A stretch of 64,000 nt of DNA, taken from NCBI GenBank assembly GCA_963842945.1, contig CAWJIM010000024.1, positions 192,001-256,000 on the forward strand, in the 5' to 3' direction. Below are positions 10,139-52,114 of this stretch, piece by piece (within the stretch, counting starts at the first letter, position 1; each line of letters begins with the position of its first letter). The notes below the pieces were generated by a model. It saw only the letters and a list, made by a program, of their open reading frames with translations. It made no database searches and had not been told where the DNA came from. Source of the stretch: an uncultured Gemmatimonadales bacterium (GTDB lineage: Bacteria; Gemmatimonadota; Gemmatimonadetes; Gemmatimonadales; GWC2-71-9). The position numbers and the translations under genes were made by a program.

Positions 10139-10142
10139 GAAA

Positions 10143-10278
10143 GCGTGAGCGGGAACAAGAACAGCGTGAGCGGTAAGCGGGAATTCCTCAAACAAAGACC
10201 CTCCGGTGTCAATGACGCCGGAGGGTCGCTATTGCGATCCCGCTCACCGCTCACGTTGGTCTTCCCGCTCACGCTGTT
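10143..10278. repeat. inverted GCGTGAGCGG(G) arrays around a hairpin
   Basis: Forward copies 10143-10181, hairpin GACCCTCCGG..CCGGAGGGTC 10197-10227, reverse CCGCTCAC copies 10239-10276. Confidence 0.8.
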
Positions 10279-33695: not shown

Positions 33696-35583
33696 TCTTC
33701 TCACCCAACCGGTCCGGACTACTCACACTCCGTTGGCCACGGAGCAGGAAGCCCGCGAAGTCGCCGAGGCAGCGAGAGAGAAGGATTGGCAGGCGCCCAG
33801 CTTCGTGCGGGAGCTGTTCGAGGGGAACTTCCGGCTCGACCTGGTGCATCCCTTCCCCCAGCCGGATCCGGCCGATCTGGCCCGGGCCAAACCGTTCATG
33901 GAAAAGCTCGAGCGGTTCATGCGGGAGCGGGTGGACAGTGACAAGATCGACCGCGAGGGCAAGATCCCGCCCGAGATCGTGAAGGGATTGGGGGAGATCG
34001 GCGCCTTCGGGATCAAGATCCCGACCGAGTACGGCGGCCTGGGGCTGAGCCAGTACAGCTACACCCATGCGGTGGGATTGGTGACCAGCCAGGACGGCAA
34101 CCTCACTGCCCTGCTCTCCGCGGCGCAGTCGATCGGCGTTCCGACGCCGCTCAAGCTCTTCGGCACGCCGGAGCAGAAGAAGAAGTACCTGCCCCGCCTG
34201 GCGCGCGGCGCCGTATCCGCCTTTGCCCTCACCGAGAACCAGGTCGGATCCGATCCGGCGGCCCTGAGCACCACGGCGACGCTATCGCAGGACGGACGGC
34301 ACTACATCCTGAACGGCGAAAAGCTCTGGTGCACCAACGGCACCATCGCCGAGCTGATGGTGGTGATGGCGCGAACCGGCCCGAAGAGGATTTCCGCGTT
34401 CATTGTCGAGACTACCTGGCCCGGCGTCGAGGTGGTGCAGCGGCTCCACTTCATGGGACTCAAGGCCCTGGAGAACGGCATCATCCGGTTCACCAACGTC
34501 AAGGTACCGGTGGAGAACGTGCTCTGGGGTGAGGGCAAGGGCCTGAAGCTGGCGCTGATCACCCTGAACACCGGGCGGCTCACCCTGCCCGCGTCGGCGG
34601 TGGCCGGAGCCAAGCGGGCGCTGGAGATCGTCCGCCGGTGGGCGGCGGAGCGGGTCCAGTGGGGCCAGCCGATCGGGAAGCACGATGCCATCGCCCAGAA
34701 GATCGGACGGATGGCGGCCGACATCTTCGCCATGGAGGCGGTAAGCGATCTCGCCTCGCTGATGGCCGACCGGGGTAACGCCGACATCCGGCTCGAGGCC
34801 GCGATGGCCAAGATGTGGAACACCGAGGTGGGCTGGCGGATCGTGGACGACACGCTTCAGATCAAGGGCGGCCGGGGATACGAGACGGCCGACAGTCTCC
34901 GGAGCCGGGGCGAGCGGCCCGATCCGGTCGAGCGGATGATGCGGGACTACCGGATCAACCTGATCTTCGAGGGCTCCAGCGAGATCATGCGGCTGTTCAT
35001 CGCGCGGGAGGCGGTAGACACCCACTTGAAGCTGGCGGGCGACCTGATCGATCCCAAGGCGCCGATGGGAAAGAAGATTCAGGCGCTGCTCAAGTCGGGG
35101 GCCTACTACGCCTACTGGTACCCCAAACTCTGGCTGGGCTTGGGGTGGCTGCCACAGTACAGCGAGTTCGGCGCGCTGGCCACTCACGTCCGGTTTGCCG
35201 CCCGGTCCAGCCGCCGGCTGGCGCGGACCTTGTTCCACTGCATGGTGCGGTTCGGGCCCAAGCTGGAGAAGCGCCAGGCGGTCTTGGGCCGGCTGGTGGA
35301 GATTGGAGCCGAGCTGCTGGCGATCACCGCGGCGTGCTCGCGAGCGTTGGCGCTGGCGAAACGGGGCAGCGGGGCAGAGGGGCAGCGGGGCAGTCCGGAA
35401 GAGGCAAGAGGCGCTATCCAGTTGGCGGACCTCTTCAGCCGCCACGCACGCCGGCGGGTGGAGGAGAAGTTTGCGGCCGTCTTCGACAACGATGACGTCC
35501 GGACGTATGAGGTGGCGCAGCAGGTGCTCAGGGGCGAGCATAGTTGGATGGAGACGGGGATGGTGAGGGAAGAGAAAGCGTAA
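33688..35583 (+). CDS. acyl-CoA dehydrogenase (long, VLCAD-like)
   Basis: [41 protein letters not shown]. Confidence 0.9.
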
Positions 35584-35611
35584 GCGGGAACAGCAACAGC
35601 GTGAGCGGGGA
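35578..35611 (+). repeat. GCGT(A/G)AGCGGG tandem pair containing the gene's stop codon
   Basis: GCGTAAGCGGG and GCGTGAGCGGG, 21 bp apart. Confidence 0.75.
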
Positions 35612-35618
35612 AACAAAG

Positions 35619-35697
35619 TGTCACCCCGAGGAGCGGTAGCGACGAGGGGGCCATAGCTGAATTCAGCTTCGGCCCCCTCGCTGCGCTCGGGGTGACA
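35619..35697. repeat. REP-like palindromic element
   Basis: TGTCACCCCGAG..CTCGGGGTGACA outer stem with inner CGAGGGGGCC..GGCCCCCTCG; half copies at 41676-41708, 46575-46596, 48188-48212. Confidence 0.7.
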
Positions 35698-35732
35698 GCT
35701 TATCTTTAGAGCGTACCGAACCGGGAAAGAAC

Positions 35733-48308: not shown

Positions 48309-49637
48309 GTGCCGAAGGACAGCGTCACCATCACCGACAACCGGACTGGCCAAACCTACGAGTTGCCTATCACCGAGGGCACCATCCGGGCGACCGATTT
48401 GCGCCAGATCAAGGTGGCGGAGGACGACTTCGGGATGATGACGTACGACCCGGCGTTCATGAACACCGCTGCCTGCCGGAGCGCCATCACCTACATCGAC
48501 GGTGACAAGGGGATCCTGCGCTACCGGGGCTACCCCATCGAGCAGCTGGCGGAGCGGGCGTCGTTTCTCGAGGTGGCCTATCTGCTGGGTGAGGGAGAGT
48601 TGCCCAACCGGGAGCAGCTGGCCAAGTGGGAAGAGACGATCAGGTATCACACCTACGTCCACACCAACATCACCAAGTTTCTCGAGGGGTTCCGCTACGA
48701 CGCCCACCCAATGGGCATGCTCCTCGGAGTGGTGGGCGCGCTTTCCACCTTCTACCCCGACGCCAAGCACATCGAGGACCCCGCGAACCGCTATCTCCAG
48801 CGGGTCCGCCTGCTGGCCAAGCTGCCCACCATCGCAGCCTTCGCCTTCCGGCACTCGCGCGGCCTTCCCTACGAGTTTCCCCGGAACGACCTGGACTACA
48901 TCGGCAACTTCGTCAACATGACCTTCAGCATCGGCGGGCGGCACCAGCCCAACAAGGTGTTGCAGCGGGCGCTGGAGATCCTGCTCATCCTCCACGCCGA
49001 CCACGAGCAGAACTGTTCGACCAGCGCCGTGCGGGCAGTCGGGTCCTCCCACGTGGATCCGTTCTCCGCGGTCAGCGCGGGGATCGCGGCGCTGTACGGT
49101 CCGCTGCACGGCGGGGCCAACGAGGCCGTGCTCCAGATGCTGGAGGAGATCGGCGACAAGAAGAACATCCCTGCATTCATCGAGAAGGTGAAGGGGGGAT
49201 CCGGCTCCCGGCTGATGGGGTTTGGACACCGGGTCTACAAGTCATACGACCCACGGGCCAAGCTGATCAAGAAGGTGGCCGACGACGTCTTCGAGCAGAC
49301 CGGGATGAATCCCAAGCTGGAGATCGCGCTGGAGCTGGAGCGGATCGCGTTGGAAGACGAGTACTTCATCAAGCGGAAGCTCTATCCCAACGTGGATTTC
49401 TACTCCGGGCTGATCTACCAGGCAATGGGATACCCCACCGCGTACTTCACCGTGCTGTTCGCCATTGGCCGCACCCCGGGATGGCTGGCGCAGTGGGAAG
49501 AGATGCTGCTGGACAAGGACCAGAAGATCGCCCGGCCGAGACAGGTCTACGTGGGCAAAGAAGAGAGACCGTTCGTACCCATCGAGCGACGAGGAGATCG
49601 GCGGAGTGTCGAGAGAGAGCGGGTCAGCAAGCGATAG
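48309..49637 (+). CDS. gltA: citrate synthase
   Basis: LHADHEQNCST, GPLHGGANE, MGFGHRVYK, YPNVDFYSG. Confidence 0.96.
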   Translation: MPKDSVTITDNRTGQTYELPITEGTIRATDLRQIKVAEDDFGMMTYDPAFMNTAACRSAITYIDGDKGILRYRGYPIEQLAERASFLEVAYLLGEGELPNREQLAKWEETIRYHTYVHTNITKFLEGFRYDAHPMGMLLGVVGALSTFYPDAKHIEDPANRYLQRVRLLAKLPTIAAFAFRHSRGLPYEFPRNDLDYIGNFVNMTFSIGGRHQPNKVLQRALEILLILHADHEQNCSTSAVRAVGSSHVDPFSAVSAGIAALYGPLHGGANEAVLQMLEEIGDKKNIPAFIEKVKGGSGSRLMGFGHRVYKSYDPRAKLIKKVADDVFEQTGMNPKLEIALELERIALEDEYFIKRKLYPNVDFYSGLIYQAMGYPTAYFTVLFAIGRTPGWLAQWEEMLLDKDQKIARPRQVYVGKEERPFVPIERRGDRRSVERERVSKR

Positions 49638-49688
49638 AAGCGGGGAAGGAACAGCGTGAGCGGGGAAGAAACAACGTAAGCGGGAAAA
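49637..49688 (+). repeat. GCGTGAGCGGG-family array, left flank of the four-helix-bundle gene
   Basis: AGCGGG at 49639, 49659 and 49679 (20-bp period). Confidence 0.8.
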
Positions 49689-49757
49689 CGGCGTATTAAC
49701 GGTCCAGCTGGCGAAGCTGGCTTACAAGTTCTGGTTTCGAGTGCTGCACAGTTTGGG

Positions 49758-50117
49758 GTGCGCGATCACCGATCACTGCATTCATGGCAGGAAGCCCAGG
49801 CAGTCGTGCTTGGGACGCTTGAGTTAGCTCGGAATAGCTGGAAGCCCTACGCCGCTGCTTTGTTCTCCCAGCTTCAGCGAGCCTCCCTGTCGGTTCAGCT
49901 CAATATTGCGGAAGGGTACGCTTTCGGAGAGTCACCGACCTACGTACGTCACCTTCGCATAGCCTACGGATCCGCGGTTGAGACTGGAGAGTTGCTCGAA
50001 ACCGCCCTCAAGGCAAACGTGATTGCTGTGGATCCAGGAATAGATCTCCTAAACCGTAATCGTCGAAGCCATCGGCTTCTCTTAGGTATGTTGCGGAGCA
50101 GGAGCCGTACAACCTAG
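49758..50117 (+). CDS. four helix bundle protein (23S rRNA IVP / bAvd-like family)
   Basis: L..WQ.A, SQLQRASLSV.LNIAEG, HLRIAYGSAVE. Confidence 0.85.
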   Translation: MRDHRSLHSWQEAQAVVLGTLELARNSWKPYAAALFSQLQRASLSVQLNIAEGYAFGESPTYVRHLRIAYGSAVETGELLETALKANVIAVDPGIDLLNRNRRSHRLLLGMLRSRSRTT

Positions 50118-50133
50118 ACCACCGCGGTTTTCT

Positions 50134-50186
50134 TTCCCGCTCACGCTCTTTGCAGTTCCCGCTCACGCTGTTTCCCCGCTCACGCT
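50134..50186 (-). repeat. GCGTGAGCGGG-family array, right flank (inverted)
   Basis: CCCGCTCACGCT at 50136, 50158 and 50175; first unit on the minus strand contains the speA TGA. Confidence 0.8.
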
Positions 50187-52114
50187 TTGTCTTCGATCGG
50201 GACATCCCCTTCCAGATAGGTATAGCCCTCCAGCCCCGCGACGTAGTCCGCGATGAAGCTGTTGGCATCGTGCCGGCTGAGATCCTTGGCGTTGGCCACC
50301 TTGCGGCGGAAGGTGGCCAGCAGATCCGAGGCATTGAACTGGACGTAGTTGAGCACCTCGGTCACGGTGTCTCCGTGGACCAGGTCGGTGATCTCGTAGC
50401 CCTGCTCGGTGAGCCGGACGTGGACCGCGTTGGTGTCACCGAAGAGATTGTGCAGGTCGCCCAGGATCTCCTGGTATGCGCCGGTCAGGAAGATCCCCAG
50501 TATGTAGGGTTGCCCTTCGTCCACCGGATGGAGCTCGAGTGAGGGCTTCCCCTTCCGTCCGCCGGTGAACCGGTCGATGACCCCATCGGAATCGCAGGTG
50601 ACGTCCTGTAGCGTCCCCCGCCGAGTCGGCGGGTGGTTGAGCCGGTGAATCGGCATGATGGGGAACAGCTGGTCGATGGCCCAGTGGTCCGGCAGCGATT
50701 GAAAGACGGAGAAGTTGCAGAAGTACCGATCCACCAGCTCCGACTCGATGTGGTTGACGATCTCGGGGAATGCGGCCTTGTCGTCGCCGATGGCGTGGGA
50801 GAGCGCGCCCAGGGTCACCAGATACAACTGGTCGGCGTCCGCCTTGTCTCGCAGAGAAAACACTCCGCTGGCGAAGAACTCCTGGGCCCGCCCCTTGGCG
50901 AACACGGCGTCGTGGAAGACTTCCTCGATCCGGTCCTGGCTCAGGCCCTCCAGATTTTCCGCCATCTCCAGCAGCAGCGGATGGGGGTCCTCCCGAAGCG
51001 GAGGAGCCACCGGCTCCACCTGAGATTCCACGTCGATCACGTTGATCAGCAGCAGCGAGTGATGCGCGGTGAGCGCCCGCCCGGACTCCGAGATGATGTG
51101 CGGCATGGGAAGCTCGTGGCTCCGGCACACTGAGCTCAGGGTGTACACCACGTCGCTGGCGTACTCCCGCATGGAGTAGTTCATGCTGGCCGGGCGAGTC
51201 GAGCGGGAGCCCTCGTAGTCGACACCCAGTCCGCCCCCCACATCGACATGGGTTATATCGAAGCCCATGTTCCGGAGCTCGACGTAGTAGCGTGCGATCT
51301 CCTCGAGGCCAGCCTTGACGTAGCGGATGTCGGTGATCTGGCTGCCCAGGTGAAAGTGGACCAGCTTGAGGAGGTTCTTGCGGTCCAGCCGATCGAGTCG
51401 GTCCAGCAGCTTCATCAGCTCGACCGAGTCGAGGCCGAACTTGGAGCGCTCCCCACCGCTCTTGGCCCAGCGCCCCGATCCTTCGGTGGCGAGCTTGATC
51501 CGGACGCCGGCGGTGGGAACCACGTTCATCTCGTCGGCCACCTTGAGCAGGACCTCCAGCTCGCTCAGCTGCTCCAGCACGATCATCACGCTGTGCCCCA
51601 GCTTCTGGCCCATCAGCGCCAACCGCATGAACTCCTCGTCCTTGTACCCATTGCAGACGATCAGGTGGTTCGTGCTCTCGTTGAGACCGAGCACAGCCTG
51701 GAGCTCGGGCTTGCTGCCGCACTCCAGTCCGACGCCGTGGGAGGCCCCGAACTCCACGATCTCCTGCATGACGTGGCGCTGCTGGTTGACCTTGACCGGA
51801 TACACAGTGGTGTAGCGCCCCTGGTAACCGGTTTCCTTGATGGCGTTGCTGAACTCGGTGGCGAGCGCCTGGATTCGGGAGCGCAGGATGTCGGAGAAAC
51901 GAAGCAGGAGTGGCAGCCCGACACCCTGGGCGTGGAGATCCATCGCGAGGTGGTAGAGATCCAGTCCGCGCTTCCGGTTGGCGTCGGGGTGGACGGTGAC
52001 ATGCCCGTCAGCGTTGATCCGGAAGTAGCCGAGTCCCCACCCACTCATGTTGTAGAGCTTCTCGGCGTCCTTGGTGGTCCAGCCGGGCGGGGACGGAGCG
52101 ACGGTAGTGGCTAT
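50180..52114 (-). CDS. speA: biosynthetic arginine decarboxylase
   Basis: YPVKVNQ, GLECGSKPEL, HFHLGSQI, DVGGGLG, ESGRA, TCDSDG, GAYQEILG; homology extends to an ATA codon at 52114. Confidence 0.93.
   Translation of the reverse strand: MATTVAPSPPGWTTKDAEKLYNMSGWGLGYFRINADGHVTVHPDANRKRGLDLYHLAMDLHAQGVGLPLLLRFSDILRSRIQALATEFSNAIKETGYQGRYTTVYPVKVNQQRHVMQEIVEFGASHGVGLECGSKPELQAVLGLNESTNHLIVCNGYKDEEFMRLALMGQKLGHSVMIVLEQLSELEVLLKVADEMNVVPTAGVRIKLATEGSGRWAKSGGERSKFGLDSVELMKLLDRLDRLDRKNLLKLVHFHLGSQITDIRYVKAGLEEIARYYVELRNMGFDITHVDVGGGLGVDYEGSRSTRPASMNYSMREYASDVVYTLSSVCRSHELPMPHIISESGRALTAHHSLLLINVIDVESQVEPVAPPLREDPHPLLLEMAENLEGLSQDRIEEVFHDAVFAKGRAQEFFASGVFSLRDKADADQLYLVTLGALSHAIGDDKAAFPEIVNHIESELVDRYFCNFSVFQSLPDHWAIDQLFPIMPIHRLNHPPTRRGTLQDVTCDSDGVIDRFTGGRKGKPSLELHPVDEGQPYILGIFLTGAYQEILGDLHNLFGDTNAVHVRLTEQGYEITDLVHGDTVTEVLNYVQFNASDLLATFRRKVANAKDLSRHDANSFIADYVAGLEGYTYLEGDVPIEDKA

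Follow-up and report, generated by a model that had tools for sequence, protein, structure and literature searches.

We found that a small gene in the window (the whole 64,000-nucleotide stretch that was analysed), together with the inverted arrays of short repeats on its two sides, forms a gene-plus-cognate-repeat cassette of a kind that is real and widespread, and that this cassette is probably mobile. Our preferred explanation, held with moderate confidence, is that gain, loss and reversal affect gene and inverted arms jointly, as a single cassette, and that the encoded protein binds the 7–8-base repeat of its own subfamily, residue 103 reading one base. The relevant features are as follows (window coordinates and strand).

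48309–49637, plus strand: host gene gltA (citrate synthase), whose stop adjoins the left arm
49638–49687, plus strand: left arm, three purine-rich units, AGCGGG at 49639, 49659 and 49679
49747–49752, plus strand: predicted leaderless promoter, a degenerate −10-like hexamer that precedes the GTG start by 5 nt
49758–50117, plus strand: four-helix-bundle gene, TIGR02436/PF05635, 119 aa, from profile matches and a fold model
50064–50075, plus strand: codons Arg103 to Arg106 on helix 4, predicted base-reading positions
50129–50190, minus strand: right arm, three units inverted relative to the left arm, at 50136, 50158 and 50175
50180–52048, minus strand: speA, arginine decarboxylase, host gene
10142–10275, no strand assigned: convergent junction with a gene-less inverted pair of GGTGAGC-type arms that enclose a short hairpin
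35577–35609, plus strand: one-sided array beginning at a stop codon
57534–57586, plus strand: one-sided array overlapping a stop codon

A sequence-only reading of the window had described a lone 119-aa gene of IVP/bAvd-like fold and atypical codon usage, placed between convergent gltA and speA outside any rRNA or DGR context, and most of this description was borne out. The open reading frame at 49758–50117 (plus strand, GTG start) matched PF05635 at 60.9 bits (cut-off 33.8, E 1.6e-16) and TIGR02436 at 58.3 (cut-off 24), and its GC3 of 0.575 fell below the first percentile (0.645) of 4242 script-called genes of the host genome. Both neighbours were confirmed as gltA and speA, no Rfam match, including Gut-1, was obtained in 49400–50400, and the PF00078 reverse transcriptase was not found in the host genome (G000, 87% complete). 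The structure model of the protein had four helices (pLDDT 96); its best Foldseek match was Xcc0516 (2GSC, TM 0.88), in which residue 103 is Leu, and the comparison with Avd (8UBE) gave TM 0.68, E 0.33 and 10% identity. By analogy with Xcc0516, whose structure 2GSC is described as a homopentamer (PMC4990558), and with Avd, we infer that the protein forms a positively charged pentamer. Against its two closest relatives the gene had dN/dS of 0.073/0.70 and 0.106/1.10, and, judged from these substitution rates, it is under purifying selection.

Phased arrays had been claimed on both sides of the gene. The AGCGGG units of the left arm indeed have a period of exactly 20, which in our reading may represent a degenerate 6+7+7 trimer of the GGTGAGC heptamer, and the three inverted CCCGCTCACGCT units of the right arm are present, but with spacings of 22 and 17, so that phasing holds for the left arm and not for the right. 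Allowing at most one mismatch, AGCGTRAGCGGG occurs in 14 copies in the window compared with 1.43 ± 1.12 in 100 shuffles. The same arrays had been noted without the gene at 10.1, 35.6 and 57.5 kb, and all three are there, the first as an inverted pair and the others one-sided. The window also contains arrays built from two further unit families, GGGGCAGC and GGAACGAC, at about 35360, 48230 and 58240; among the seven paralogs found in the 87%-complete genome, none is cognate to GGAACGAC. Besides, a GTCACCC-type palindromic element occupies 35610–35700, after the one-sided array and ahead of a gene that we take from its sequence to be QueF-like.

It had been proposed to examine genome-wide whether paralogs of the gene are flanked by repeat families. 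A genome search of the host recovered seven family paralogs, so the gene is not a lone one, and inverted short-repeat arms were present at all seven. Each paralog subfamily had its own tandem, non-palindromic unit of 7–9 bases, and GGTGAGC-type units were common to the three most similar paralogs (3 of 7), the window protein among them; two of the seven were frameshifted and one further paralog was a fragment. Nor were arms equally frequent at all gene ends. Under a fixed scoring scheme, an arm score of at least 4 was reached by 60 of the 117 family loci whose flanks were complete and by 76 of the 4217 host genes. The collected proteins numbered 125, and on a tree built from the 116 intact ones the repeat unit tracked the protein clade. 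In a fresh set of 171 further loci, 163 of them with full flanks, arms were found at 131, that is, at 45 of 60 in this order, 62 of 73 in other phyla and 24 of 30 on viral contigs (L371–L401). The arms at viral-contig loci suggest that phages may move the cassette.

A de novo scan of the host genome returned 311 tandem-array hits, and most of the commonest tandem units were arm units of the PF05635/TIGR02436 family. Seven unit families accounted for 218 intergenic arrays, of which 142 had no partner. Among array pairs of opposite orientation within 700 nt, the purine-rich arm came first in 38 of 38, and the gaps fell into two classes, 33 of 4–123 nt and five of 423–569 nt; all five wide pairs enclose a family gene, one of them identified by coordinates. 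These results bear on the simplest alternative, that slippage-born repeats accumulated at gene ends and an unrelated gene happened to lie between two of them. The same repeat does occur at many junctions without the gene, but arms at every paralog, subfamily-specific units, a 38:0 polarity and the residue–base covariation described below all speak against chance, and the excess in arm score and the polarity and gap anatomy of the arrays already contradict it. We regard this explanation as scarcely credible.

Of the junctions in the host genome, arrays occupied 47 of the 410 convergent ones, 107 of the 1891 co-directional ones and 14 of the 559 divergent ones. In relatives, arms were also found to enclose nothing or, often at the gltA–speA junction, REP-like hairpins in place of the gene. 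Genome G073 (99% complete) carried 37 repeat copies though the cognate gene was not found, and the repeat load in 11 versus 16 related genomes had medians of 37 and 23, a modest difference; the 103-genome tallies include one unpublished genome, G065, on which no claim depends. Repeats in genomes with no detected cognate gene fit long-lived remnants, and they also fit partial independence of the repeats from the gene.

The gltA–speA junction was then compared among relatives, as had been suggested for filled and empty alleles. Among 33 loci examined, 28 had a readable junction, whose length from stop to stop ranged from 15 to 585 nt. The gene was present in only three of the 28 (G000, G105 and G072) and is thus not stably syntenic. 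The G105 copy has the same orientation as the window gene and is 86% identical to it, and the G072 copy, from another sublineage, is reversed and 73% identical; a metagenome contig (L215) provided a fourth gltA–speA junction with the gene. Among 76 loci, seven junctions were used in both orientations. An empty allele was seen in two contigs from two runs of one study, at a depth under 3. Over 111 nt in one contig and 285 nt in the other, they differed from the gltA end of the window at 1 and 2 positions, respectively; they left it at 49636 and reached speA-end sequence after 12 nt; the strains carrying this allele are about 99% identical in gltA. As the left edge of the empty allele is also the left edge in the empty sister species G068, the cassette was probably gained here recently, with a breakpoint in the outermost unit. 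Old vertical descent followed by many losses would also fit, since the divergence of the gene between G000 and G105 at fourfold sites (26/61) equals that of gltA (22/53) and speA (20/52), in a synonymous-rate comparison in which the host genes are near saturation. The earlier claim that gene and repeats form a unit stands in that they are gained, lost and reversed together, and its suggestion that the arms pair in RNA was weakened, as described below.

Several further observations concern these junctions. No target-site duplication and no catalytic family were identified for the cassette. That empty arms in G000 correspond to filled sites in relatives is not claimed as a general rule, as only a few of the 22 junction ends checked had arms in G000. 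A four-helix-bundle cassette in decay, its left arm of GTRAGC and its right arm of GTRAAC type, lies at G000 C16:133590–134170, and its junction is filled in five related loci. Two gltA-end copies each were present in G034 (L084, L112) and G114 (L070, L098), with junctions that differ in G034; these are possibly mixed bins.

Junction contents were hypervariable between close relatives, and at the gltA–speA junction both arms switched unit family together (GTRAGC, GTRAGA and CACRGAG). Such joint switches, with a hairpin, nothing or a gene as cargo, would be expected if the protein and a host enzyme wrote the repeat at segment edges, arms being installed around any junction content and the gene being one beneficiary. 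The position of the speA stop points the same way: in the window it is contained in the outermost right-arm unit (50180–50186), and it lies within a GTRAG unit in 19 of the 28 loci. However, such switches are equally explained if a donor sequence replaced the whole interval, the 87%-complete genome yielded no reverse transcriptase, and no polymerase or terminal-transferase motif is known in this fold. We therefore judge repeat-writing to be unlikely. As a separate observation, the outermost repeat unit often supplies host stop codons, so arm turnover rewrites the last codons of the host genes.

The same variability bears on another explanation, in which the protein is a domesticated host regulator or nucleoid protein, the gene-end arrays tune termination or mRNA decay, the arms around the gene are autoregulatory and the gene undergoes ordinary gain and loss. 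This is consistent with the hundreds of arrays at gene ends, with purifying selection on the gene, and with the proposal that similar paired sites in Geobacter are sites of unidentified global regulators (PMC2700814, in the portions considered here). In contrast, hypervariable junctions, a gene reversed at the same site in relatives, and two frameshifted paralogs of seven with one more reduced to a fragment are poorly compatible with such a role, which we consider distinctly unlikely.

Evidence that the protein reads the repeat came from covariation between residues and bases. The unit of the clade can be written N1-G-T-R-A-N6-N7, and in a scan of 64 clade rows residue 103 ranked first for N1 and residue 106 first for N7. 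Eighteen rows were dropped because of a higher-order or GGGGA unit consensus or a truncated protein. In the remaining 46, concordance was found in 44 for Arg/Lys103 against A at N1 and in 43 for Arg106 against C at N7, each the best of 82 columns. The window protein was among the dropped rows, and its Arg103, Arg106 and C-G-G site fit by inspection. Residue 55 was the top column for N6, but other columns scored close to it, so phylogeny is a possible cause and no link is claimed. For rows outside the clade a rule was fixed beforehand, namely that the unit contains YGG or YAG. In 49 such rows the ratio was 8:0 for Arg/Lys103 and 9:18 for Glu103, and in the 131 fresh loci it was 19:1 and 10:36 (p 1.8e-8), with 3 and 31 rows uninformative. 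In total, Arg/Lys103 occurred with G in 59 of 60 rows, and Glu103 with A in 59 of 77 and with G in 18 of 77; position 103 was the best of 214 residue states in 178 distinct pooled rows. The corresponding rule for residue 106 (C versus T) failed outside the clade, on the fresh loci (p 1.0).

Phylogenetic control reduced this signal. Independent pairs contrasting Arg/Lys with Glu gave 5.3 same and 0 opposite of 8 (median sign-test p 0.06), those contrasting non-Glu with Glu gave 6.1 same versus 0.2 opposite of 11 (median p 0.03), and cherries gave 5 same, 1 opposite and 7 with no change. The sequence comparisons thus give modest support to the view that residue 103 of helix 4 tracks one repeat base, also on fresh loci from other phyla, a relationship that is marginal after phylogenetic control. 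The covariation favours binding, and it is likely that the protein binds its own repeats.

The nature of the bound nucleic acid depends in part on how the gene is expressed. Of 44 clade genes, 25 have TANNNT at a distance of 5–8 nt ahead of the start, as against about 4% of the 4234 host genes, and on this basis a leaderless promoter is predicted downstream of the left arm; the left arm would then fall outside the gene's own transcript. The window copy of the −10-like hexamer has C at position 1, and a sigma-70 scan revealed no full promoter ahead of the gene. Sigma-54 promoters space their GG and GC elements by 10; an upstream GG-N8-GC motif has a spacing of 8 and a patchy occurrence, and a sigma-54 reading of it was rejected for both reasons. 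With regard to transcripts, one RNA run (X9) contained a single 221-nt contig identical to 49648–49868, strandless and at a depth of 2.4, for which DNA carry-over is possible and which we do not count as evidence of expression, and another (X20) had no contig matching the gene region.

It has been reported that, in Coxiella burnetii 23S rRNA, the S23p ORF-bearing intervening sequence (IVS) has a 28-bp stem and tandem heptamers and is cleaved by RNase III at the first repeat (Warrier et al. 2016, PMC4990558). To the extent that this account was considered here, the window locus resembles such an IVS in its PF05635 protein, in a gene placed inside inverted termini and in tandem heptamers upstream of the ORF. 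The locus could accordingly be regarded as an intergenic twin of the rRNA IVS, in which the arms pair as an RNA stem in read-through transcripts that RNase III cuts and the protein binds repeat RNA or is a passenger; the cassette would then be a variant of the IVS. The window arms are complementary and by prediction could form a stem: in the predicted fold of the region they are paired with each other (z −3.36), and the arm duplex was computed at −71 kcal/mol with an uninterrupted run of 17 bp. A Glu–adenine contact suits single-stranded RNA, and the preference of arrays for 3' ends, with convergent junctions occupied more often than divergent ones, is also in favour of the IVS-like reading. 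In addition, Avd, which shares the fold, is described in the consulted part of its report as binding RNA (10.1101/2023.10.23.563531).

Nevertheless, the units showed no G-U asymmetry, the A variant being found in 52 of the 210 left units and in 46 of the 190 right ones (14 versus 15 loci); when 11 candidates were ranked for pairing, a locus's own arms came on average at 4.2, little better than foreign arms; 142 of the 218 arrays have no partner; and with a leaderless promoter, as predicted, the gene's own mRNA would lack the left arm. Unlike an rRNA IVS, the window gene lies between protein-coding genes, has its own predicted promoter, is under purifying selection, occurs in both orientations in relatives and is accompanied by hundreds of gene-less arrays genome-wide. 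The portions of the Coxiella account considered here (PMC4990558) contain no proposal that the protein reads the heptamer. Thus the arms can pair, as the sequence-only reading had suggested, and we consider an IVS-like RNA stem somewhat unlikely as their role.

We return to the preferred explanation, a mobile cassette whose protein binds its repeats. The cassette would move at gene junctions as one unit of gene and inverted repeat arms, and the four-helix-bundle protein would recognise the 7–8-base repeat of its subfamily, residue 103 being predicted to read one base. A pentamer may sit on the tandem units, more likely as double-stranded DNA than as an RNA stem, a leaning that follows from the lack of G-U asymmetry, the predicted leaderless promoter and the weak preference for pairing with own arms. 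Since a purine-then-pyrimidine arm pair reads alike from both strands, an existing arm pair or a single unit could take up a cassette either way round, the breakpoints falling in the outermost units. The many arrays that lack a gene would be remnants, either collapsed or non-autonomous, and our guess is that host recombination or repair acting on protein-bound arms might do the cutting and joining.

By the features compared here the cassette falls outside IVS, RAYT–REPIN and DGR systems, and by analogy its logic works most like RAYT–REPIN. As in the sections of Bertels and Rainey (2011, PMC3337134) considered here, a short gene lies between copies of its cognate repeat, repeat families differ from paralog to paralog, and inverted doublets lacking the gene are dispersed in extragenic space. 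However, the window protein is not an HUH/Y1 tyrosine transposase, its Pfam and NCBIfam matches being to four-helix-bundle family models only; the one Y1_Tnp gene of the host genome is on another contig. Also unlike RAYT–REPIN, the window units are tandem non-palindromic 7–9-mers rather than imperfect palindromes, site and orientation vary for the cassette gene itself, and closely related paralogs occur together. Avd of DGRs, described in the part of its report consulted as a positively charged pentameric barrel (10.1101/2023.10.23.563531), has the same fold, but Avd serves a partner enzyme, and the neighbours of the window gene are gltA and speA.

Paired heptamer and octamer arrays have been described in Xanthomonas and Nostoc (Rehm et al. 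2015, PMC4692102) and in Geobacter metallireducens (Aklujkar et al. 2009, PMC2700814). By published description, in the portions considered here, they resemble the window arrays as tandem 7–8-mers in convergent pairs near stop codons; those portions name no binding protein and propose G-quadruplexes or IHF/HU-type regulators. The term "four helix" is absent from the main texts of both papers, and "xcc0516" from the main text of PMC4692102. A literature search that covered mainly openly readable papers, in their main texts and abstracts, found no publication linking a PF05635/TIGR02436 gene to repeats. If the preferred explanation is true, a very common protein family lacking a function, with matches in 105 of the 121 genomes of this order that were sampled, would acquire one, and the bacterial heptamer arrays left unexplained in published studies would have a candidate binding protein. 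The residue-103 rule is testable by one point change and two oligonucleotides. More tentatively, and as a possibility that we would not yet call probable, the S23p/TIGR02436 proteins may form a large family of rings that bind nucleic acids sequence-specifically by a simple helix-4 code, driving transposase-free swapping of elements between strand-symmetric arms and leaving the heptamer and octamer arrays of many phyla, ORF-bearing rRNA IVSs being copies that landed in rRNA.

Other small genes were also observed within arms of their own. All three GxxExxY (TIGR04256) genes of the host (G000 C24:146431–146778, C18:60365–60574 and C19:168241–168441) have inverted arms of CACAGAG/CACGGA type, and arms of this type, some around decayed coding sequence, fill the gltA–speA junction in G011, G098, G126 and G034. 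Similarly, two small GIY-YIG genes (G000 C19:679757–679972 and C2:225059–225220) lie inside GTCATCC-type palindromic arms, and GTCATCC-type hairpins are also found gene-less between heptamer arms in relatives. The GIY-YIG genes in their own arms and the gene-less hairpins suggest that small-gene cassettes with arms of their own make up a guild whose members compete for the same junctions.
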